A stretch of DNA of 64,000 nucleotides from an uncultured Actinomycetota bacterium (GCA_964387355.1 CAYLWJ010000107.1:1669-65668); one strand, 5' to 3'; shown: positions 1 through 44,118, counted from the stretch's first letter. The notes: a model not told the origin generated them from the sequence alone. Program-made: numbers and translations.

Positions 1-660
1 AACAATCTCAAGAACTGAAATGTCCATATCTTCAATTTCCTGCTTAGAAGGTATGTAAACCATATCCTGGTCATTAAGTTTCAAAGCCAAATTTACAACC
101 TCCAAACAGGCTTCTTTATCTGCTCCACCTGCAATTTTTAATAAATCAGCAATTCTAGCTTCTTTTGATAGCTCATAAACACCTGGATTTAATACACTTC
201 CACATATATAAGCTTTAATTTGGTCATTTTCTAAGTTATCAGTATAATAATTTTCCATATTGTTTTCGTTTTCCATATTTTTCCCGCTACTATTTAAACC
301 ATTATCCAAAACAGAATTACTTTTGGAATTTAAATAAGAAGCAGAATCACTTTTTGAATTTACAGGTGAACTGCTATCATAGTGTTTATCTTCTGAGTCA
401 CTTCCTGAAGAAGTTTTACCTAAATTATTTAAATCCTTTTCATTATTTTTTTCTATATCTGAATAATAACTCTTTAAAATATTTTCTTTTACTTTTATTT
501 GCTTTTTTTGATAAAAATATATACCAACAGCCGTAAGCGAAATAATAATTACCAGCATAAATATGGCAATAAAGTAATGCTTCTCCCTACTGTATACAAT
601 CCTTTCTAATGCAAATTTTATTTTTAATAATTTTTCTTTAATGTCTATAAAATTAAGCAT
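1..660 (-). CDS. comEA: ComEA-like competence/DNA-binding protein, partial (C-terminal HhH part runs off the window start)
   Basis: Manual minus-strand translation from the ATG at 660-658 gives an N-terminal TM segment, a Ser/Asn-rich linker, then the SLBB-type motif IKAYICGSVLNPGVYELSKEARIADLLKIAGGADKEACLEVVNLALKLNDQDMVYIPSK typical of ComEA. The ORF is open to coordinate 1. Confidence 0.6.
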   Translation of the reverse strand, partial: MLNFIDIKEKLLKIKFALERIVYSREKHYFIAIFMLVIIISLTAVGIYFYQKKQIKVKENILKSYYSDIEKNNEKDLNNLGKTSSGSDSEDKHYDSSSPVNSKSDSASYLNSKSNSVLDNGLNSSGKNMENENNMENYYTDNLENDQIKAYICGSVLNPGVYELSKEARIADLLKIAGGADKEACLEVVNLALKLNDQDMVYIPSKQEIEDMDISVLEIV

Positions 661-1271
661 CTCTAATTTTTAAGTTTAAAATTTTAAGTTATTAAATTTT
701 AATTTTTATTATTTTTAAAATACATTAATACATATTTAATTTTTGATATATTTATTTATTTATATTATAGCATAAATATATATATTATAAAGCCCTTTTT
801 TATTTTTATATTATTTCTTATATCATTCTTTTTTGTTTTTATTTTTTTCCCCTATATTTATTCCTTATTTTATATTTCTTTATTCTATATAAATTGTTTT
901 AAAAATTTTAAGCAATACAACTAAATTAAAGAAAACGAATAGACATAATTAACCTAAAACGAAAAATAAAATATCCTAGCTTTAAATAAAAAATTAACAA
1001 CAACAACAATAATAATAATGATGATGATAATAAAATTTAAAACGAAAATTTTGTTTATAAATAACATTTATTTATAAAAAACTTGACAAAAAATTTATAA
1101 AATTTAAAATTACAATATATAAAAATATTGATATATATTTATATGTTTATAGACTCAATATTTTTCCTAAATATCTAATATATGTTTAATCTAAGATCTA
1201 ATATCTAAGATCTAAGAATTTAATAAAAAAAATTATTATAATTTAAAAAAACTACTGGAGGGTTAATTTTA

Positions 1272-4200
1272 ATGAAAAAAAACGCTAAATTGGAACTTAT
1301 AAAGGAATTTAACGATAGAATCTCCTTTGAACTAACCGAAAGAAAAATCTACAGTCATGACATTGCTTCAATTCCCAGCATTATTAAACCATTATTAGGC
1401 AGCAAAGTAGCCGAAGCAGTTGTCCAGCCTATTTCTGAAGAAGAACTTATATTTTTAACTAAATGGGCATCTGAAAATAAAATTGCACTAGTCCCTAGAG
1501 GAAAAGCAACATCTGGGTATGGTGGTGTACTACCATTAAAAAGAAGTATTATAGTTGATTTTTTTAGGATGAATAAAATTATTAATATTAATAAACAAAA
1601 TAATACTGTAACTGTTCAACCAGGAATAATTTGGGAAAAATTAGATAAAGAGTTAAAAAAACATGGACTAGCTTTAAGGCTTTACCCTTCAAGCTATCCT
1701 GGCTCTACAGTTGGTGGTTGGTTTGCTCAAGGTGGTGCAGGTATTGGGTCATATGAATTTGGATTTTTTAAAGAAAATGTTGAAAGTATAAAAATTGTTT
1801 TGCCAAATGGCAATGTAGAAAAATTTGAAAAAGAAAATTTAGATTTAATTTCAGAAGCCGAAGGAATTACAGGTTTTATAAGTGAAATAACTTTTAAAGT
1901 TATGCCATTTGAAGAATTAGAGATTTTAGCAGTTTCAACACCTGATGTTTATAATTTACAAAAGTTCTTAAGTCTAATTATTGATTTTAAAATTCCAATT
2001 TGGTCTGTTCTTTTTATTAACCCAAAAATGGCTGAGTTAAAAAATCAAACTCCACCAAAAGAACATGTTCATTTTAATTCAGACAATAAAATCGACAATA
2101 AAAGTACTTTAACAGATGAAATAATTTTACCAGAAAGCTATATTTCCACTCTAGCTTTTCCTAAAAAAAGCAGCAGTCAAGTTAAAGATGGCCTTGAAAG
2201 TATTCTAAATGAAACAAATTCAACTCTACTTAGCAGTAATATAGCTCAACACGAATGGGAAAACCGCTTTAATACTATGGTAGTAAAAAGGCTTGGACCT
2301 AGCATGGTTCCTTCTGAATTTATCATACCTCTTAATAAGTTAGGAGATACCCTTACAGAAATCATAACAAAGGTAAAGCAGCCAATTATTAAAGAAGGCA
2401 TGGTTATAAAAAGAGACCAAAGTGGCAAGTCTGAAGTTGTAATACTTGGCTTTATACCCAGTGATGAAAGAAAATTTAGTTATAACTTTGTGTTTGCATT
2501 AACTCTTACAATTTTAAAAATAGCACAAAAAAATAACGGCAGACCTTACTCAACCGGATTGTATTTTGCAAATAAAGCTCAGATGGTTTTGGGTAAGGAA
2601 AGACTCCAGAAATTGCTAAATTTTAAAAATGAAGTTGACCCATTTAACATTTTAAATCCAAATAAAGTTTTTGGACTTGGCAGAGTAAATTTATTAATGA
2701 AAACTGCTGAAACCTTAGAACCCTTAATTAAGCCAATTGCCAATAGGGTTATAACAAATATTGGGCAACGATTTGATAAAAAAGACATAAAAGACATTCC
2801 CGCTGACGTTGCATGGTATGCATACTGCTGTTCTCAGTGCGGGTATTGTGTCCCAGAGTGCGACCAATTTTATGGAAGAGGCTGGGAAAGCCAAAGCCCA
2901 CGAGGCAGGTGGTATTGGCTAAGGTTATATTTAGAAGGTAAAGAAAAATGGTCGCAAAAAATGGTGGACTCCTTTTTAGCATGTACAACCTGTGAACTTT
3001 GCAATCTTAAATGCTCTGTAAACCTTCCAATAGAACCATCATGGATGAAAATGAGAGGACGTTTAATTCATGATGAGCATAAAATGACAATTCCTCCTTT
3101 TGAAATGATGGCTGCAGCATTAAATAGAAATGGAGACATTTGGGCTGGATACAGAGAAAATAGAGAGAAATGGTTTCCTCAAGATTTAAAGGAAAAACAT
3201 TATAATCCAAATATTAAAAAAGATACCATATATTTTGCTGGGTGTACTGCAAGCTATGTTGAAAATGATATAGCAATGGCAACAGTAAGACTGCTTGACA
3301 GCGCTGGAGTTGATTTTGATTATTTAGGAACAGAAGAGAATTGCTGCGGCATACCAATGCTAGTAGCAGGAAAATGGGATGATTTTATAAATACAATGAA
3401 AAACAATATAGAAGCAGTAAAAAGCAGAGGTGCTTCAACTGTAATAGCATCTTGTCCTGCCTGTGATATGATGTGGAGAACTGTTTATGTCCAATGGGCA
3501 AAAAAATTGGGGCTTGAATATAATATTAAGGCAAAACATTATAGTGAAGTTATTGCAGAAAAAATTAGAAATAAAGAATTCCATTTCCCTCAAAAAGCAG
3601 AACTTAAAGAAAAAATCAATGTTACTTGGCATGATTCCTGCCATATTGGACGAGCCTCTGGTGTTTATGATCCACCAAGGGAAATTATAAAAGCTATTCC
3701 AAATGTTAATTTAATTGAAATGGAAAATAATAAAGAAAATGCTCACTGTTGCGGTAGCGTCCTAACTTTAATTAAAGAACCTCCAGTAGCAGCAGAAGTA
3801 GGAAAAATTAGGCTAGATGAAGCAGTAGAATGCGGAGCTGAAAAAGTATTATCACTTTGCCCATGCTGTGAATTTCAATTTAGGGTAACAAAGGAAAAAA
3901 AGAATATAAATTTAGAAATAGTTGATTTAGCAAGATTTGCATCCAAAGCTCTAGGCTATGATTTTCCTGAGCCAAACCCTGAAGTTCAGCGACAATGGGC
4001 TGTTTTTGAAGCCATGATTTCTCTTATGAGCCCAGAAGGCTTTGCATCCGTAATGAAAAGTATGTGGCCTCAGCTGATTTCAGCAATGCCTTTAAAAATG
4101 GGCTCAATGATGAAGCTCATGGGAAAAATTCCAGGCGCGCTTAAAATGATGAAACCTCTTTTCCCAGTTTTATTTCCAATACTTTTACCCAAGATGATGC

Positions 4201-4382
4201 CAAAAGTAATGGGTACTATGCTAAAAATCATATCAGATAAAATACCAATGCCTGATTATATGCTTGAACAGATGCCAGAGCTAATGCCAAGAGTTATGGA
4301 TAATTTAATGCCCCATATGATTGGAGATGTTATCCCGCTTGTTGCAGATGATATGATAAATTATCTTCAAAATAAAAAATAA
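1272..4382 (+). CDS. FAD-linked oxidase (PCMH FAD-binding domain) fused to a 4Fe-4S ferredoxin domain and two Cys-rich CCG domains (Dld / GlcD-GlcF-fusion-like, plausibly D-lactate or glycolate dehydrogenase), with an unusual Met/Pro-rich C-terminal tail
   Basis: N-terminal VVQPISEEELIFLTKWASENKIALVPRGKATSGYGG matches the FAD_binding_4 signature. CCSQCGYCVPECDQF and CTTCELCNLKC are 4Fe-4S motifs. CTASY...NCCGIP and WHDSCHIG...AHCCGS are CCG-domain motifs as in GlcF/GlpC/HdrD. The final ~130 aa are Met-rich. Confidence 0.75.
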   Translation: MKKNAKLELIKEFNDRISFELTERKIYSHDIASIPSIIKPLLGSKVAEAVVQPISEEELIFLTKWASENKIALVPRGKATSGYGGVLPLKRSIIVDFFRMNKIININKQNNTVTVQPGIIWEKLDKELKKHGLALRLYPSSYPGSTVGGWFAQGGAGIGSYEFGFFKENVESIKIVLPNGNVEKFEKENLDLISEAEGITGFISEITFKVMPFEELEILAVSTPDVYNLQKFLSLIIDFKIPIWSVLFINPKMAELKNQTPPKEHVHFNSDNKIDNKSTLTDEIILPESYISTLAFPKKSSSQVKDGLESILNETNSTLLSSNIAQHEWENRFNTMVVKRLGPSMVPSEFIIPLNKLGDTLTEIITKVKQPIIKEGMVIKRDQSGKSEVVILGFIPSDERKFSYNFVFALTLTILKIAQKNNGRPYSTGLYFANKAQMVLGKERLQKLLNFKNEVDPFNILNPNKVFGLGRVNLLMKTAETLEPLIKPIANRVITNIGQRFDKKDIKDIPADVAWYAYCCSQCGYCVPECDQFYGRGWESQSPRGRWYWLRLYLEGKEKWSQKMVDSFLACTTCELCNLKCSVNLPIEPSWMKMRGRLIHDEHKMTIPPFEMMAAALNRNGDIWAGYRENREKWFPQDLKEKHYNPNIKKDTIYFAGCTASYVENDIAMATVRLLDSAGVDFDYLGTEENCCGIPMLVAGKWDDFINTMKNNIEAVKSRGASTVIASCPACDMMWRTVYVQWAKKLGLEYNIKAKHYSEVIAEKIRNKEFHFPQKAELKEKINVTWHDSCHIGRASGVYDPPREIIKAIPNVNLIEMENNKENAHCCGSVLTLIKEPPVAAEVGKIRLDEAVECGAEKVLSLCPCCEFQFRVTKEKKNINLEIVDLARFASKALGYDFPEPNPEVQRQWAVFEAMISLMSPEGFASVMKSMWPQLISAMPLKMGSMMKLMGKIPGALKMMKPLFPVLFPILLPKMMPKVMGTMLKIISDKIPMPDYMLEQMPELMPRVMDNLMPHMIGDVIPLVADDMINYLQNKK

Positions 4383-5953: not shown

Positions 5954-6373
5954 TTGATTATAATGACTGAATTGCAAAAAAAAATTGAAAAGAAACTTAA
6001 AGAAGCAAAGGTCGATTTTGTTTGTGAATATATGGGAATAGACTTTTTTAAAATTTTCATAGAACCTTATGAAAATTGGGATAAAGACCCATACGAAAAC
6101 CACATTTGGAAAATAACAAAGTCTTCCAAGGTTGGCTATACAATAAGTGCAATACCCCCAAGTAATATGTTTAATGAAATCCCATGGGAAGAATGGTTCC
6201 CGGAAAATGGGAAAAACAACCACTTCCTCTTGTATACAGTTAAAAAGGAAAACTCTACAGGCCAATGGAAGGGAGAACTTGATGATAAAGACCATCCTTC
6301 AGAAGTTTTAGGCTACCAATGGTACTTTGTACCTGATGATAATTTGGTCCCACTGCTTCTCAGGAAAAAATAA
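5954..6373 (+). CDS. hypothetical protein (139 aa), no recognisable domain
   Basis: Intact ORF in an otherwise non-coding AT-rich interval. Trp/Glu-rich. No homology recognised by eye. Confidence 0.35.
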   Translation: MIIMTELQKKIEKKLKEAKVDFVCEYMGIDFFKIFIEPYENWDKDPYENHIWKITKSSKVGYTISAIPPSNMFNEIPWEEWFPENGKNNHFLLYTVKKENSTGQWKGELDDKDHPSEVLGYQWYFVPDDNLVPLLLRKK

Positions 6374-6558: not shown

Positions 6559-6969
6559 ATGAAACTTATTACAAGAGATACAGATTACTCAATTAGAGCA
6601 TTAATTTATATTGCTCAAAATAACAATCGTATAACTTCAATAACAGAATTGGTAAAAAAATTAGATACCCCAAGACCATTTTTAAGAAAAATTCTTCAAA
6701 TTTTAAGCAATAATAATATTTTAGAGTCTTATAAAGGTAAAAATGGTGGTTTTAAACTTGCTAAAAAACCTGAGGAAATATATCTTTTAGATTTAATAGA
6801 AATATTTCAGGGTAAATTTAAGATAAATGAATGTCTATTTAAGAAAAAAATCTGCCCAGACCAAGCAAACTGCAGATTAAAATATAAGCTTGATGAAATA
6901 GAAAAACTTGTTGAACGTAAAATAAAAGAAATTAACCTCCAATCATTGTTAGCTGCAGATAAACAATAA
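6559..6969 (+). CDS. Rrf2-family (IscR/NsrR-like) transcriptional regulator with a 3-Cys putative Fe-S ligand motif
   Basis: MKLITRDTDYSIRALIYIA...ITSITELVKKLDTPRPFLRKILQILSNNNILESYKGKNGGFKLAKKPEEI is a canonical Rrf2 wHTH. C-terminal CLFKKKICPDQANC has three Cys spaced 6 and 5 apart, like the IscR cluster ligands. Confidence 0.8.
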   Translation: MKLITRDTDYSIRALIYIAQNNNRITSITELVKKLDTPRPFLRKILQILSNNNILESYKGKNGGFKLAKKPEEIYLLDLIEIFQGKFKINECLFKKKICPDQANCRLKYKLDEIEKLVERKIKEINLQSLLAADKQ

Positions 6970-7023: not shown

Positions 7024-9882
7024 CTATTTTACAACAATATTTACCAGCTTATCAGGAACAGTTACAATCTTTAAAATCTTTTTACCTTCAATAAATTTTA
7101 AAACTTTATCGCTCCTTAATGCTTGCTCTTTAAGTTCAGCCTCAGATGCGCCTGCAGGTAATTCTTTCTTATCCCTTAATTTTCCATTTACCTGAAATAC
7201 AATAGTTAATAGTTCCTGTTTTGCAATTTCTTCATCAAATTCTGGCCATTTTTGCCTATGTATGCTAACTGGCATTCCAAACAAATGCCATAACTCTTCA
7301 GTTATAAAAGGAGCAATAGGTGAAAGAAGCTGAAGAATTTTTAAACTTACTTCAAATAATAGATCAGGATTTTTATTCAAATCATCTACTTCTTCATTGT
7401 ATTTATTAATGGAATTTGTCAGCTCCATTATTGCACTAATTGCAGTATTAAAATTAAATCTATTTAAAATATCAAAAGTTACTTTTTTTATCGTTTGATG
7501 AAGCTTTCTAAAAAGCTCCTTGTCATTAGCCGATATTTTATTTGACTTAAAATCTTTCCTTAAATTTTGCTCTATTTGTTCTAATTGCTCTAATCGTTTT
7601 AAATATCCTAGCTGTTCAACTGGTTCACGCTGCTTTTCTTGCGTAGGCTGCTTTTCTTGTATAAGTAGCTTATCTCGTTGATTCTGCTTAAGCTGAACTT
7701 GTTGTCTAAGCTGTTCCTTATTTTCTAACTGTTCTTGCTGTTTAAACTGACTCTCTATAATTGTATTAATTGTATTGCTTTTTCCATCATTATTTTTTAT
7801 AAAATATAGATTTTCACTAATTATTCTCCAAAACCTTTTTAAAAATCTATTGGCTCCTTCTACACCTGTATCACTCCAATCAACCATTGAATCTGCAGGC
7901 CCTATAAACAATATATATAACCTTAGGGTATCTGCACCATACTTATTATATATCTCAGACGGATTTACAATATTGCCCTTTGACTTTGACATTTTTTGTC
8001 CGCCTAATGTAACAATTCCATGAGGGTAGTATTTTGTAAATGGCTCTTTAAAATCAACTAGTCCAGCATCAAATAATACTTTTGTAAAAAAACGGGCATA
8101 AATTAAATGCATTGTTGCATGTTCAATCCCGCCAATGTACTGGTCCACTGGCATCCAATACTTTACAGAATCTTTACTAAAAGCTGTATTATTTTCATGC
8201 GGACTGCAATACCTTAAAAAATACCATGAAGAACAAACAAAAGTGTCCATTGTATCAGTTTCTCTTTTTGCTTTACCTTTACACTTTGGACAAGTGGTGT
8301 TAACAAAATCTTCACAATACAAAAGTGGTGAAAGTCCAGTTGGTCTAAAGTCAACATTATAAGGAAGCAACACAGGCAAATCTTTTTCAGGAACCGGGAC
8401 TATACCGCATTTATCACAATAAATTATTGGTATGGGCGCTCCCCAGTATCTTTGCCTTGAAATAAGCCAATCTTTTAACTTATAATTTACTTCAAAATCA
8501 CCAATAGCCTTTTCCTTTAAAAACTTGGTAATCTCTTTTTTACCAAGCTCTGAAGACATTCCACTAAACTTTCCAGAATTAATCATTATACCTTTTTCAA
8601 CATAAGCTTCATTTAATGAATCCGAAGGCTTTCCGTCGGGAGAAATCACCTGTCTTATTGGTATTTTATATTTTTTTGCAAATTCAAAATCCCTAGAATC
8701 ATGTGCAGGAACAGCCATAACAGCGCCTGTACCATACTCAAGAAGAACATAATTTGCAATCCAAACTGGAACTCTTTCATTATTTACTGGGTTTATAACA
8801 TACCGCCCTGTAAAACAGCCAATTTTTTCAGCTTCAGTTGAACCTCTTTCAATATCTGTCTGCCTAGAAATAATATCTTTAATTTTTTCAACTTCTGCCT
8901 TTCTTTCACTATCAACAACAATCTTATCAACTAATGGATGTTCGGGGGCAAGGATAAAAAAGGTGACTCCAAAAAGTGTATCAGGCCTTGTTGTAAATAC
9001 AGGAATTTCAATATCGCCATCAATACCCTCAATATTATCATTGCTTTCTTGATTGAGGTTGTTATTAATTTCTTCAGATTTAATTTTTTCTAATTTAAAA
9101 ACTACTCTTGCACCTTCGCTTCTTCCAATCCAGTTTTGCTGAATAGTAAGAACTCTTTCTGGCCACCCGTCCTTAATAATTTCCATATCATCTAATAGCC
9201 TTTGTGCATAATTAGTTATTTTAAAAAACCATTGTGAAAGAGTCCTTCTTCTTACTGGATTATCACATCTTTCGCATTTCCCATCTATAACCTGCTCATT
9301 TGCAAGAACAGTTTGACATGAATCACACCAGTTAACTGGGCCTTCCTTTTTTTCAGCAAGTCCCATTTTATATAAAAGTAAAAAAAGCCATTGCGTCCAT
9401 TTATAATAATCTGGTTCACTTGTAATTATTTCATCCTCAAAATTATAGGTCATACCCATTCTTTTAAGAGCTTTCCGCATCTTCTCAATATTTGCCATTG
9501 TGCTATCTTTTGGATGAATTCCATTTTTAATTGCAGCATTTTCAGCAGGTAGACCAAATGCATCATATCCAATTGGGTGTAAAACATTATAGCCTTTTCT
9601 TGAGAATATTCTTGCCAGTACATCGCCAATTGTATAATTTCTAGCATGGCCCATATGAGGCTCGCCAGATGGATATGGAAACATTTCAAGGATATAATAT
9701 TTTATTAATTTATCTGGAAGGTCATTGTTTTTAATTTCAAGGACATTTGTTTTATTTTCTTCCCAAACCTTAAGCCATTTTTGTTCTATCTTTTCTGGAA
9801 TATACTCAAGGTATTTTTGCTTTATTTTTTTTCCAAAATTGTCTATTTCATAGCTTTTTTTTTCTGAATCTTTTATATCCAA
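7024..9882 (-). CDS. leuS: leucyl-tRNA synthetase
   Basis: HIGH-type motif PYPSGEPHMGHARNYTIGDV and KMSKS motif GQKMSKSKGN. Includes a CP1 editing domain. Length 952 aa, with a Q-rich low-complexity insertion near aa 700-765. Confidence 0.95.
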   Translation of the reverse strand: MDIKDSEKKSYEIDNFGKKIKQKYLEYIPEKIEQKWLKVWEENKTNVLEIKNNDLPDKLIKYYILEMFPYPSGEPHMGHARNYTIGDVLARIFSRKGYNVLHPIGYDAFGLPAENAAIKNGIHPKDSTMANIEKMRKALKRMGMTYNFEDEIITSEPDYYKWTQWLFLLLYKMGLAEKKEGPVNWCDSCQTVLANEQVIDGKCERCDNPVRRRTLSQWFFKITNYAQRLLDDMEIIKDGWPERVLTIQQNWIGRSEGARVVFKLEKIKSEEINNNLNQESNDNIEGIDGDIEIPVFTTRPDTLFGVTFFILAPEHPLVDKIVVDSERKAEVEKIKDIISRQTDIERGSTEAEKIGCFTGRYVINPVNNERVPVWIANYVLLEYGTGAVMAVPAHDSRDFEFAKKYKIPIRQVISPDGKPSDSLNEAYVEKGIMINSGKFSGMSSELGKKEITKFLKEKAIGDFEVNYKLKDWLISRQRYWGAPIPIIYCDKCGIVPVPEKDLPVLLPYNVDFRPTGLSPLLYCEDFVNTTCPKCKGKAKRETDTMDTFVCSSWYFLRYCSPHENNTAFSKDSVKYWMPVDQYIGGIEHATMHLIYARFFTKVLFDAGLVDFKEPFTKYYPHGIVTLGGQKMSKSKGNIVNPSEIYNKYGADTLRLYILFIGPADSMVDWSDTGVEGANRFLKRFWRIISENLYFIKNNDGKSNTINTIIESQFKQQEQLENKEQLRQQVQLKQNQRDKLLIQEKQPTQEKQREPVEQLGYLKRLEQLEQIEQNLRKDFKSNKISANDKELFRKLHQTIKKVTFDILNRFNFNTAISAIMELTNSINKYNEEVDDLNKNPDLLFEVSLKILQLLSPIAPFITEELWHLFGMPVSIHRQKWPEFDEEIAKQELLTIVFQVNGKLRDKKELPAGASEAELKEQALRSDKVLKFIEGKKILKIVTVPDKLVNIVVK

Positions 9883-41328: not shown

Positions 41329-41416
41329 TGGTGCGAGAGAGGGGATTTGAACCCCTACAGGTTGTTAGCCCACTAGATCCTAAGTCTAGCGCGTCTGCCA
41401 ATTCCGCCACTCTCGC
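41329..41416 (-). tRNA. tRNA-Leu (anticodon TAG), CCA encoded
   Basis: Reverse complement GCGAGAGTGGCGGAATTGGCAGACGCGCTAGACTTAGGATCTAGTGGGCTAACAACCTGTAGGGGTTCAAATCCCCTCTCTCGCACCA. Long variable arm. Anticodon loop CTTAGGA. Confidence 0.85.
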
Positions 41417-41445
41417 AAAAAACTAAGAAAACTATATAAAAACTA

Positions 41446-41521
41446 TGGTGGGTCGTACAGGCTTCGAACCTGTGACCCCCTGATTAAGAGTCAGGTGCTC
41501 TGCCAGCTGAGCTAACGACCC
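41446..41521 (-). tRNA. tRNA-Lys (anticodon CTT), CCA encoded
   Basis: Reverse complement GGGTCGTTAGCTCAGCTGGCAGAGCACCTGACTCTTAATCAGGGGGTCACAGGTTCGAAGCCTGTACGACCCACCA. Anticodon loop CTCTTAA. Confidence 0.85.
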
Positions 41522-41584
41522 ATTGCAACCTATAGCAACGCATATTGCTTAAAATATATAATAATTAATACCTAAAATAACCAA

Positions 41585-41661
41585 TGGCACGCCTGGAGGG
41601 ATTCGAACCCCCGACGCACGGATTCGAAGTCCGACGCTCTATCCAACTGAGCTACAGGCGC
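41585..41661 (-). tRNA. tRNA-Arg (anticodon TCG), CCA encoded
   Basis: Reverse complement GCGCCTGTAGCTCAGTTGGATAGAGCGTCGGACTTCGAATCCGTGCGTCGGGGGTTCGAATCCCTCCAGGCGTGCCA. Anticodon loop CTTCGAA. Confidence 0.8.
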
Positions 41662-41763
41662 TAATCATACAATAAAGTCACAAGCACTAAATAAATTAAC
41701 AAAATAAAATCATATAATTTATATAATTAAATCATATAATAAAACATATAATAAAAATAAAAA

Positions 41764-41842
41764 TGGGGTGAGAAACGGGATTCGAACCCGCGGCCTCAGG
41801 AGCCACAATCCTGCGCTCTAATCCAGCTGAGCTATTCCCACC
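41764..41842 (-). tRNA. tRNA-His (anticodon GTG) with encoded G-1 and CCA
   Basis: Reverse complement GGTGGGAATAGCTCAGCTGGATTAGAGCGCAGGATTGTGGCTCCTGAGGCCGCGGGTTCGAATCCCGTTTCTCACCCCA. The extra 5' G pairs with the discriminator C. Confidence 0.85.
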
Positions 41843-41895
41843 ACAAAATTTAAAATAATTTACTAATTTTTAAAATAATTTACTAATTTACTTAA

Positions 41896-41972
41896 TGGCG
41901 CGCTTGAAAGGATTCGAACCTTCGACCTACGGATTAGAAGTCCGTCGCTCTATCCAACTGAGCTACAAGCGC
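41896..41972 (-). tRNA. tRNA-Arg (anticodon TCT), CCA encoded
   Basis: Reverse complement GCGCTTGTAGCTCAGTTGGATAGAGCGACGGACTTCTAATCCGTAGGTCGAAGGTTCGAATCCTTTCAAGCGCGCCA. Anticodon loop CTTCTAA. Confidence 0.85.
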
Positions 41973-42245
41973 ATCAGACAAATAACTTTATAGAACAATT
42001 CTATAATCTTATATAATCAAAATAAACCTATCAAAACAAACCTATATTATTATATCAAAACAAAAAAATTTAACAAAATACCAGTATATAATTACTAATT
42101 CAAATAAGAATTGTCAATAATAATTTTTTTTGAAATTCAAAATAATAATCTAATATAACTAAAAATACAAGCCTAATTATTTAAAAGCGTTAGCATCTAA
42201 AATTTCTCATAACAATAAAAGTTAAGCTTAATTGATACGGCTTAT

Positions 42246-42392
42246 AGATATGGCTTTCTATTGAAAAAACGTTTTGAAGGCTTAAAGCGGGCATGGTTCC
42301 TCCTTTAGAAGGAAAGCGAAGCCTTAAAACTTGAACTATCTTTTTTTCGCTGGGAAAAAGCTAGCGTGTTTTTGAAATAGAAAGCCATATCT
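42246..42392. ncRNA. candidate structured non-coding RNA (long imperfect hairpin, ~28-bp closing stem plus internal helices; 6S-RNA-like architecture, family not identified)
   Basis: AGATATGGCTTTCTATTGAAAAAACG (42246-) pairs with CGTGTTTTTGAAATAGAAAGCCATATCT (-42392). Internal complementary AAGGCTT/AAGCCTT and CCTT/AAGG helices. A local GC-richer island inside a 700-nt non-coding gap between tRNA-Arg and the ADH gene. Confidence 0.25.
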
Positions 42393-42676
42393 TTTATTTT
42401 ACTTTTCATCACGAAATTTTAGGTGCTTCCTTTAAAAGCTAATTATTTAAAATGTTATTTTAAAATGCTAAAACTGCAGAAATAATCGCAGAACTAATTA
42501 TGAACTAATTATAGAAATAAAAGATTAGAAATAACTACCAATTTTTTAGTTTAACTTTATATTAACAATTTAAATTTTTTTGCACTTTATAAAAAATGTT
42601 TATATAGATGCCATATACCTATGAATATCGACAAAAGATATTAAAATTAGGTATCTTAAAAACAATATAAAGAACA

Positions 42677-43849
42677 TTATAAGCATAAACTCAAAATTTC
42701 CTTAACCTTATTAATATCGTAATCTTTAACATTCCAAACATCTGCAAGCTCAAGTATACTGCCTGCTAACTTATCAATTTCATTTGTTGGAATATTTGCA
42801 TCTTTAAATGATACAGGGCTTTTTATTTGGATAAACCAATTCTTTAAAGCTTCTATTCCTTTTAAAGCAGTATCTTCATCATCACTGCCTTTTATCTCAA
42901 AAACATTTTTAGCAAATTTTACATATTTAGAAATATTTTTCTTATAATTATATTTCATCCAACCTGGCACAATAATTGAAAGAGTTGCTCCATGAGCTAA
43001 ATCATAGTAAGCACCTAAAATGTGTCCAAACATGTGGTTAGGAACTGAAAAATCACCAATTCCAGCTGTTCCAAGACCATTCCATGCAAGTGAAGCTGCC
43101 CACATAAAAGTAGCCCTTGCCTGATAATTAGTTAAATCTTTTAAAATTGTATTTGTTGCTTCAATAATAGTTTTTACTAATCCTTCAACATATCTATCTT
43201 GTATAGGACAGTTAGGGTCATTTGAAGTAAAATAACCCTCTAAAAGATGTATAACAGCATCAACTGCAGCATAAGCAGTATAGTCAGCAGGTATAGTCAA
43301 AGTAACCGATGGGTCAAGTATAGATACTTTTGGATATAGATTCTGATTAATAAACCCAAATTTTTGTTTTTTCTCTTCATTTGTCAACACTGTTCCGCCA
43401 TTATATTCAGAAGCTGTTGCAGGAACAGTTAACACTGTTAAAACAGGCAAGGCTTTTTTTATCTCAGATTTGCCATTATAAAAATCCCAGACATCTCCAT
43501 CGTATAGGGCACCTGCTGCAATTGCTTTTCCTTCATCAATTACACTACCACCTCCAACAGCTAAAATAAAATCAACTTTTTGGCTTTTTGCAATTTCGAT
43601 ACCTTTTCTAGCATGCGAAACCACTGGATTCGGTTTAACTCCGCTATGCTCAATTATTTCAAGGTTATTATCTTTAAGGGATTTTATTACTGTCTGGTAA
43701 ACTCCATTTTTCTTAATAGAACCCATACCATAAACTAATAAAAGTTTTTTGCCATAATCCTTTGCAAAGCTTCCAATTAAAGAAATTTTACCTTTGCCAA
43801 ATACTATTTTAGTAGGAAGACATAATTCAAAATCTTGCATTTTTATCAC
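42677..43849 (-). CDS. iron-containing (group III) alcohol dehydrogenase
   Basis: Fe-ADH signature GGGSVIDEGKAIA, plus His-rich metal-ligand motifs in the C-terminal half. 390 aa. Confidence 0.85.
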   Translation of the reverse strand: MIKMQDFELCLPTKIVFGKGKISLIGSFAKDYGKKLLLVYGMGSIKKNGVYQTVIKSLKDNNLEIIEHSGVKPNPVVSHARKGIEIAKSQKVDFILAVGGGSVIDEGKAIAAGALYDGDVWDFYNGKSEIKKALPVLTVLTVPATASEYNGGTVLTNEEKKQKFGFINQNLYPKVSILDPSVTLTIPADYTAYAAVDAVIHLLEGYFTSNDPNCPIQDRYVEGLVKTIIEATNTILKDLTNYQARATFMWAASLAWNGLGTAGIGDFSVPNHMFGHILGAYYDLAHGATLSIIVPGWMKYNYKKNISKYVKFAKNVFEIKGSDDEDTALKGIEALKNWFIQIKSPVSFKDANIPTNEIDKLAGSILELADVWNVKDYDINKVKEILSLCL

Positions 43850-43921
43850 CTTCTCATATTAATCAATCTAATATATATCAATGCTTTTATACTTCACTTT
43901 AAATTTTATTTGGAAAAAAAA

Positions 43922-43998
43922 TGGAGCGGGAAACGGGATTCGAACCCGCGACCCTCAACTTGGAAGGCTGATGCTCTAGCCAACTGAGCTATTCCCGC
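43922..43998 (-). tRNA. tRNA-Gly (anticodon TCC), CCA encoded
   Basis: Reverse complement GCGGGAATAGCTCAGTTGGCTAGAGCATCAGCCTTCCAAGTTGAGGGTCGCGGGTTCGAATCCCGTTTCCCGCTCCA. Confidence 0.85.
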
Positions 43999-44039
43999 TC
44001 GTAAAGGAAACAAATTTTTGCAAAACACATTAATTTTAA

Positions 44040-44118
44040 TGGTCGGGGTGAGTGGATTTGAACCACCGACCTCCTGCTCCCAAAGCAGGCGCGCTAAACC
44101 AAGCTACGCCACACCCCG
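44040..44118 (-). tRNA. tRNA-Pro (anticodon TGG), CCA encoded
   Basis: Reverse complement CGGGGTGTGGCGTAGCTTGGTTTAGCGCGCCTGCTTTGGGAGCAGGAGGTCGGTGGTTCAAATCCACTCACCCCGACCA. Anticodon loop TTTGGGA. Confidence 0.8.

Follow-up and report, generated by a model that had tools for sequence, protein, structure and literature searches.

The locus and the domain architecture of the enzyme

The stretch of DNA analysed here (the window; 64,000 nucleotides) comes from an uncultured Actinomycetota bacterium (GCA_964387355.1, CAYLWJ010000107.1:1669-65668) and contains, at 1272..4382 on the plus strand, an open reading frame (ORF) of 1036 amino acids (aa) in which an FAD domain, two [4Fe-4S] motifs, two CCG motifs and a C-terminal tail rich in Met and Pro are joined in a single-polypeptide oxidoreductase (ORF list, Pfam and NCBIfam). 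The C-terminal peptide exactly matches the one quoted in an earlier interpretation of the same DNA that was made without database searches (the sequence-only reading), and the whole protein is 100% identical to a database entry (P0121). The enzyme belongs to a known class, within which it represents a distinct, widespread family of single-polypeptide FAD/FeS/CCG oxidoreductases that is highly conserved and uncharacterised; its tail is an accessory domain that is not described in Pfam, NCBIfam or PDB.

The N-terminal part of the protein consists of an FAD_binding_4 domain (aa 48-184; 1413..1823, plus strand, as are all features of this gene; Pfam E=1.7e-34) and a cap domain that extends to approximately aa 466 and is weakly matched by Pfam FAD-oxidase_C (aa 219-466, E=0.21). 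These are followed by a ferredoxin-like 4Fe-4S dicluster segment (aa 518-585; 2823..3026; Pfam Fer4_17, aa 520-585, and Fer4_8) with two CxxCxxCxxxC motifs (Cys 520/523/526/530 and 571/574/577/581), and by two CCG domains of the HdrB/HdrD/GlpC type (approximately aa 652-871; 3225..3884; Pfam CCG E=8.5e-31, in 2 stretches). The first CCG domain contains cysteines at positions 658, 691, 692, 728 and 731, and the second at positions 790, 826, 827, 863, 865 and 866; both CX(n)CCX(n)CXXC motifs are complete (658, 691/692, 728/731 and 790, 826/827, 863/866). The ferredoxin-type motifs and the CCG motifs alike are invariant among 67 orthologues. The protein thus possesses the features that define the FAD-FeS-CCG superfamily, namely a VAO-type FAD domain, two ferredoxin motifs and two CCG motifs.

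A methionine- and proline-rich tail attached to the CCG module

The tail, as delineated by composition and periodicity, comprises the last 143 aa of the protein (aa 894-1036; 3951..4379, followed by the stop codon). It does lie behind the second CCG domain, as the sequence-only reading had it, although the start given there (3950) falls one base before the codon boundary at 3951. The tail contains 23 Met (16.1%) and 18 Pro (12.6%), compared with a background of 1.48% Met and 3.41% Pro in the 15,326 residues of the other long ORFs of the window and the core of the tail-bearing protein itself. Under a binomial model, the probability of such a content is 3e-17 (Met) and 2e-6 (Pro), and no other 143-aa segment of these ORFs or of the protein core contains more than 10 Met. 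The methionines are also regularly spaced: Met-Met pairs peak at lags of 4, 8 and 12 residues (10, 7 and 7 pairs, respectively), and the lag-4 count is matched by only 0.04% of shuffles; MxM (Met at lag 2) is absent from the tail. Strongly hydrophobic residues account for 47% of the tail versus 35% of the core. The periodic Met/Pro-rich segment that had been noticed by eye is therefore real.

The tail begins where the characterised relatives of the CCG module end. The matches to the LdhH, TfrB, GlpC and GlcF models terminate at aa 867-889, and nothing in Escherichia coli GlcF aligns opposite the tail; these proteins stop just after the second CCG domain, and the earlier suggestion that the tail is not standard in proteins of this kind is upheld. 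In a divergent member of the family (L085, 730-3695), the enzyme is naturally split into a protein with the FAD and Fer4 domains (590 aa) and a protein with the two CCG domains and the tail (397 aa), the two genes overlapping in TAATG and the second having its own AGGAGGG ribosome-binding site. Because the split leaves the tail with the two CCG domains, it is functionally part of the CCG (HdrD/GlpC-like) half.

Distribution and evolutionary constraint

No match for the tail was found in Pfam-A 2025 even at E<=1, NCBIfam 20.0 and PDB yielded no significant profile or structure match for aa 894-1036, and a full-text search of the literature found no paper on the enzyme family or the tail. A search with the tail alone recovered at least 250 proteins with approximately 66-77% identity across the full tail length, and a search with the whole protein gave approximately 2,400 scored homologues, the best 120 of which are all 1011-1059 aa long. 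In an exhaustive HMMER scan of 1.84 billion cluster representatives, the tail was detected in 195 clusters only, always at the C-terminus of proteins of approximately 1,000-1,030 aa or their fragments; this restriction to a single architecture identifies it as a domain specific to one family. Four apparent stand-alone tail proteins were rejected, two (P0080 and P0002, on long contigs) as pieces of frameshifted genes and two (P0305 and P0246) as N-terminally cut fragments. On the two long European Nucleotide Archive contigs from which P0080 and P0002 derive (L082, 3102-6456, and L083, 3385-6468), ORF calling breaks the gene into three or four successive pieces, apparently through indel errors in error-prone assemblies.

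The gene is present in at least 572 species (one genome per species scanned), and the locus analyses concern the 80 best loci among these. The 80 loci belong to Chloroflexota, Actinomycetota, Zixibacteria, Desulfobacterota, Gemmatimonadota, Planctomycetota, Ignavibacteria and archaea (Candidatus Methanoperedens), with 59-73% identity and with all matches extending through residue 1032-1036. The reading frame is intact in the window gene, and 79 of the 80 orthologous loci encode the full-length protein. Such identity across at least 8 phyla, together with the archaeal copies, suggests that the gene spread by horizontal transfer under strong constraint. The full-length archaeal copies are those of Candidatus Methanoperedens (L014, L029 and L077) and of an uncultured archaeon (L026 and L037), which are 61-62% identical to the bacterial-type copy in the window.

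Among the regions of the protein, the tail shows the highest mean pairwise identity (83%), followed by the FeS (82%), CCG (76%) and FAD (68%) regions, and most of its Met and Pro residues are invariant in the alignment of the 67 orthologues. The Met content of the orthologous tails (12.6-20%) is maintained over a range of gene G+C content from 32 to 69% (r=-0.17). The same composition recurs in 19 divergent tails (24-57% identity), which contain 10-16% Pro and, apart from a single tail with 6.8%, 16-22% Met. In relatives that are 24-57% identical overall, Met is retained at 67% of the Met columns; its substitutes in these divergent members are Leu, Ile, Phe, Val and Ala, plus Cys in just two cases, and do not include His. 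Across all members, the tail contains 0% Cys and 0-2.3% His. Evidently, the Met-richness of the tail is itself under selection.

Predicted structure of the tail

A full-length AlphaFold2 (AF2) model was built from the 67-sequence alignment (mean pLDDT 78.8); in this model, the tail is helical (pLDDT 68-91). When folded alone by AF2, the tail forms six helices with a mean pLDDT of 86 and a pTM of 0.75. In these models, the tail is an autonomous all-helical domain of approximately 130 aa (folded part aa 904-1032; 3981..4367) that is predicted to comprise four short helices and a hairpin of two helices of 35 and 38 residues built of Pro-x-hydrophobic-Met tetrads. The short helices H1-H4 (aa 904-918, 921-929, 932-937 and 940-951; 3981..4124) include the invariant residues W909, F912, M928, W932, P933, M939 and P940. 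The first long helix, H5 (aa 956-990; 4137..4241), has a net charge of +5 and contains five P-x-hydrophobic-hydrophobic tetrads (P965, P969, P973 and P977, with Pro at 981 in most orthologues). The second, H6 (aa 995-1032; 4254..4367), has a net charge of -6 and contains approximately nine (P/D/G)-polar-hydrophobic-Met tetrads (M997, M1001, M1005, M1009, M1013 and onward).

Both long helices follow the same four-residue register, in which the first position is occupied by Pro (sometimes Asp or Gly), the second by a polar and variable residue, the third by a hydrophobic residue and the fourth by Met or a different hydrophobic residue; conservation is seen at three of these four positions. The hydrophobic moment calculated at 100 degrees per residue is low in both H5 (0.05) and H6 (0.10), and it is highest at 92 degrees (0.38 and 0.48, respectively).

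Relationship to known oxidoreductases

The order of two CxxCxxCxxxC motifs followed by two complete CCG motifs is common to the window protein and GlcF, GlpC, the LdhH/LutA-type proteins, TfrB, HdrD/HdrB and DsrK. However, CCG subunits of the GlcF/GlpC/HdrD class employ separate flavoprotein and/or membrane subunits, whereas the window protein is one polypeptide. In this respect, it resembles YdiJ, a D-2-hydroxyglutarate dehydrogenase (PMC9504171), and the Dld-II-type D-lactate dehydrogenases (PMC4481167), which likewise are single chains of approximately 1,000 aa in which an Fe-S module comes after the VAO-type FAD domain. Nevertheless, E. coli YdiJ aligns with the window protein over only 139 aa of the FAD domain (31% identity) and has neither a Pfam CCG match nor a Met-rich tail.

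At the level of the fold, the model of the N-terminal half matches the structures of D-lactate dehydrogenase (TM 0.80 on the target) and AGPS (alkyl-DHAP synthase) with E ~1e-18. The best NCBIfam matches are LdhH (6e-38), TfrB (2e-37) and GlpC (8e-27), but none of the equivalog cut-offs tested (LdhH, TfrB, GlcD, GlpC, YdiJ, GlcF, DsrK and HdrB) was reached; all scores are far too low, among them 130, 129, 101, 94, 71 and 64 against cut-offs of 800, 385, 568, 278, 1350 and 333, respectively.

In D-2-hydroxyacid dehydrogenases of the GlcD/LDHD/D2HGDH/YdiJ type, two conserved motifs of the cap domain, one with a pair of His and one with Glu-His, supply metal-binding and catalytic residues. In a MAFFT alignment, which at approximately 20% identity is suggestive only, the H-x-GDGN-x-H (H-x-G-x-G-x-x-H) and GEHG motifs of the E. 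coli proteins are absent from the window protein and its relatives, and the respective positions read KRDQSGKSE and PYS---TGLYF instead (window ~2400-2600, ~aa 377-440). Because the cap lacks both motifs, the substrate chemistry of the enzyme probably differs from that of the D-2-hydroxyacid dehydrogenases. Orthology with E. coli YdiJ, GlcD and GlcF was rejected on these grounds, given the short alignment of YdiJ, the replaced catalytic motifs and the lack of a counterpart of the tail in GlcF. The description of the protein as Dld/GlcDF-like in the sequence-only reading accordingly holds for fold and architecture; it does not extend to family membership, considering the missing motifs and the unreached cut-offs.

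Genomic context and linked regulators

In the window, the gene stands alone, between an upstream divergent ORF for an SLBB-domain (ComEA-like) protein (1-657, minus strand) and a downstream convergent gene of the Gfo/Idh/MocA family. To survey the neighbourhood more broadly, ORFs were called in the 80 orthologous loci and then clustered. The sole recurrent neighbour is an ArsR/SmtB-type regulator of approximately 110 aa. Among the 72 loci with sufficient upstream sequence, 23 have the regulator gene immediately before the enzyme gene and in the same orientation (L002, L007-L010, L020, L030, L038, L040, L041, L044-L046, L049, L050, L054, L063, L067-L069, L072, L074 and L078); three more loci carry such a gene at L082 2701-3042, L083 1454-1819 and L085 334-603. 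No ArsR-type regulator gene is present beside the enzyme gene of the window, including the spacer that separates it from the SLBB-domain ORF. Helix 1 of the regulators includes a Cys that hardly varies (A-E/D-L/I-C-K). Approximately 70% of the regulators have a second Cys (A-C-D), and their closest relatives of solved structure are Rv0081, HlyU, NolR, SqrR and BigR, not the classical metal sensors. No conserved gene for a membrane subunit was detected beside the enzyme gene in approximately 90 loci.

In six Desulfobacterota loci, a gene for an outer-membrane channel of the FadL/TodX type, which serves hydrophobic compounds, is located between the regulator gene and the enzyme gene, and a seventh locus from the same phylum has the FadL/TodX gene upstream with no regulator detected; these seven loci come from Syntrophaceae, Smithella and Desulfomonilia (L031, L034, L036, L052, L060, L065 and L071). 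The same arrangement of regulator, channel and enzyme genes is seen again in L083, with the FadL/TodX gene at 2027-3259. The presence of a FadL-type channel in these operons suggests an exogenous hydrophobic inducer or substrate.

Possible functions of the tail

In this enzyme, electrons from FAD would be expected to reach the CCG clusters by way of the two clusters of the ferredoxin type. The tail, situated directly behind the last CCG motif, may offer a deformable hydrophobic surface near the terminal redox site. The reading that we favour, tentatively and at somewhat less than even probability, is that this surface is plastic and lined with Met and links the redox site of the CCG module to a lipophilic partner. 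The plasticity would come from the flexible side chains of Met and from the Pro in every fourth position, which loosens the helices that bear them, and the surface would dock the CCG site to a quinone or a membrane surface (most likely) or to another hydrophobic substrate, in place of the separate or fused membrane modules of the HdrDE-, DsrMK- and EtfD-type relatives. A docking tail appears to be the most economical explanation given that no partner gene was found and that CCG modules elsewhere gain access to quinones by means of a cytochrome b partner, a fused membrane domain or proposed monotopic helices. The FadL-type channel encoded in the Desulfobacterota operons is in line with this explanation. 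A hydrophobic role is further supported by the replacement of Met only with hydrophobic residues (rarely Cys), the 47% hydrophobic composition of the tail and the conserved register.

There are precedents for such a role among CCG proteins. The CCG subunits of quinone-linked enzymes (SdhE, GlpC and GlcF) have been proposed to act as monotopic anchors via helices (PMC2754724), and EtfD, a membrane oxidoreductase, contains a CCG module fused to a membrane domain (PMC8593149). Both SdhE and EtfD share with the reading favoured here the logic of a CCG site that reaches quinone through the membrane-contact element of the enzyme itself. However, the proposed amphipathic helices of SdhE lie within the CCG fold, whereas the tail is a separate, non-transmembrane C-terminal Met/Pro domain with a putative membrane contact.

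Several observations weigh against the docking surface. Helices H5 and H6 do not display the classical signature of an in-plane anchor, the moment being as low as 0.05-0.10 at 100 degrees with the peak at 92, and the net charge of -6 on H6 would be unfavourable on an anionic membrane. The compact fold predicted for the isolated tail (pTM 0.75) implies that the Met residues could form a core or a dimer interface. The locus of the window itself supplies no functional context, and some hosts, such as Dehalococcoidaceae (L030), belong to groups that are reported to lack quinone synthesis. The tether to the membrane or quinone that was put forward in the sequence-only reading is still the most attractive idea, but the in-plane amphipathic signature that would have been expected of it is not seen; the weak moment at 100 degrees and the acidic character of H6 lower the probability of a classical anchor only and not that of contact with membranes or lipids in general.

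The favoured reading can be extended to a fuller scenario, which we consider doubtful. In this scenario, the protein would be a self-contained monotopic redox enzyme, probably under thiol-based control by an ArsR-type regulator, and the domain of Pro/Met tetrads would be a new fold, the ligands of which (quinones or other lipophilic electrophiles or disulfides) would be passed on to the HdrB-like CCG site. This would represent a third route by which CCG chemistry is linked to hydrophobic substrates, beside cytochrome b partners and fused membrane domains, that spread horizontally through anaerobic bacteria and Methanoperedens.

The family is of some general interest. Its distribution in anoxic sediments, peat and aquifers is very wide, and members from different phyla, archaeal as well as bacterial, share 60-73% identity; yet it has no assigned function, and its best-conserved part is a domain that is not described in any database. 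CCG modules of the heterodisulfide-reductase type have a central place in anaerobic energy metabolism, and a recurring question is how such modules gain access to their acceptors. Should the tail bind quinone, lipid or membrane, it would be a new solution to this problem and a new fold, and would provide a handle on the substrate of an orphan enzyme. Even if the tail were only a structural arm, the helix of Pro-x-hydrophobic-Met tetrads would be an unusual motif that merits the definition of a domain family.

Such a structural or oligomerisation arm, in which the Met residues are ordinary core residues without a ligand role and the long Met-rich hairpin either joins its counterpart in a second subunit or packs on the core of the enzyme, appears unlikely. 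It fits the confident, compact AF2 fold of the tail alone, the complementary charges of H5 (+5) and H6 (-6), which suggest pairing, the conservation of three of the four register positions, as expected of a helix contacted on most sides, and the replaceability of Met by Leu, Ile and Phe. A plain core could, however, be built just as well with Leu or Ile, and it would not be expected to hold Met at 67% of the Met columns at 24-57% identity, nor to maintain 16-22% Met across phyla and G+C contents. A purely structural role also does not account for the tail being better conserved than any other part of the enzyme.

Alternatively, the tail might be a docking groove for a protein or peptide, such as a hydrophobic helix of a redox partner or membrane protein, by analogy with the M domain of SRP54, Get3 and the C-terminal domain of Sgt2, a possibility that we regard as improbable. 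Met-rich client-binding domains are well established: Sgt2/SGTA-C and Get3 (PMC8010706, PMC6593721) bind hydrophobic helices through Met-lined amphipathic helices and provide the working analogy of a "Met bristle" for the Met-rich, helical and flexible tail. These proteins are, however, chaperones and not redox enzymes, and neither sequence nor fold similarity to the tail was detected. The M domain of SRP54/Ffh, the comparison drawn in the sequence-only reading, is also Met-rich and helical, and is thought to present a malleable hydrophobic surface. The only stretch of the tail that resembles the finger loop of SRP54/Ffh is KMGSMMKLMGKIPGALKM (aa 942-959; 4095..4148), which hhalign aligned with residues 343-360 of E. 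coli Ffh at 50% identity over 18 columns with a probability of 7%. Pfam SRP_SPB does not match the tail at E<=1, there is no structural match to the M domain, and Ffh lacks the Pro tetrad repeat; the resemblance is thus an analogy and not homology. Nor does any homology link the tail to Get3 or Sgt2-C, and there is no conserved neighbouring gene that would be a candidate for the partner.

Binding of a soft metal, Cu(I), Ag(I) or Hg(II), by Met thioethers for sensing, buffering or catalysis ranks slightly lower still. The frequent i/i+4 pairs of Met and the ArsR/SmtB-family regulator gene upstream in approximately a third to 40% of the orthologous loci are compatible with it, and the tail shares high Met density and the i/i+4 spacing with the Cu(I)-binding motifs (MxxM, MxM, MxxxM) of CopC/PcoC, CusF, Ctr1 and CueO. 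The latter motifs are extracytoplasmic or transmembrane and usually combine Met with His, whereas soft-metal sites in the cytoplasm usually use Cys. The window protein, in contrast, is apparently cytoplasmic, given its Fe-S clusters and an N-terminus (MKKNAKLELIKEFNDR) that on inspection shows no signal peptide or twin-arginine motif, and the tails of all members lack Cys and contain at most 2.3% His. In addition, the Met columns tolerate Leu, Ile, Phe and Val, one member has only 6.8% Met, MxM does not occur, and the linked regulators are closest to the non-metal sensors named above. The Cu(I) binding entertained in the sequence-only reading is accordingly disfavoured.

A sacrificial role, with surface Met residues scavenging oxidants and thereby guarding the oxygen-sensitive CCG and Fe-S clusters, is highly improbable. 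It would suit the anaerobic hosts, the thiol- and redox-related products of some neighbouring genes (glutaredoxin, ferredoxin-thioredoxin reductase, rubredoxin, WrbA and nitroreductase) and the conserved Cys of the linked regulators. Scavenging would not, however, require an exact register, invariant Pro or 83% identity, and no gene for a methionine sulfoxide reductase is linked to the enzyme gene in the orthologous loci. Finally, a compositional artefact or out-of-frame read-through, although conceivable for a repetitive-looking sequence in an AT-rich window (28.5% G+C), has a negligible probability and is refuted by conservation: the low complexity without conservation and the frame error considered in the sequence-only reading are not what is observed, the tail being in frame at full length in 79 of the 80 loci, equally Met-rich in genes of 32-69% G+C, confidently folded by AF2 and the best-conserved region of the protein.

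Other features of the window

The enzyme gene is preceded by a very AT-rich intergenic spacer of approximately 610 bp (660-1271). The best sigma-70-like promoter match in the spacer, TTGACA-16-TAAAAT (1083..1110, plus strand), agrees with the consensus at 11 of 12 positions in a consensus scan only. Repeated triplets of the types caa, taa and tga follow one another at ~1001-1035, and 'atctaagatctaa' words are repeated at ~1190-1215. Rfam detected no riboswitch or other RNA in the spacer, its only matches in the window being tRNAs elsewhere.

A gene for an Rrf2-family regulator (Pfam E=4e-31) is located 2 kb downstream of the enzyme gene (6559-6969, plus strand) and is preceded by an ORF of 139 aa without a Pfam match (5954-6373, plus strand). 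Further downstream, the ORF for leucyl-tRNA synthetase (LeuRS; 7024-9882, minus strand; 952 aa), apparently of the bacterial type, contains a low-complexity insertion of approximately 90 aa rich in Gln, Glu and Lys (QFKQQEQLENKEQLRQQVQLKQNQ...EQLEQIEQNLRKDF) before the C-terminal domain. Seven tRNA genes are clustered at 41332-44118 on the minus strand (Rfam tRNA, 60-76 bits).

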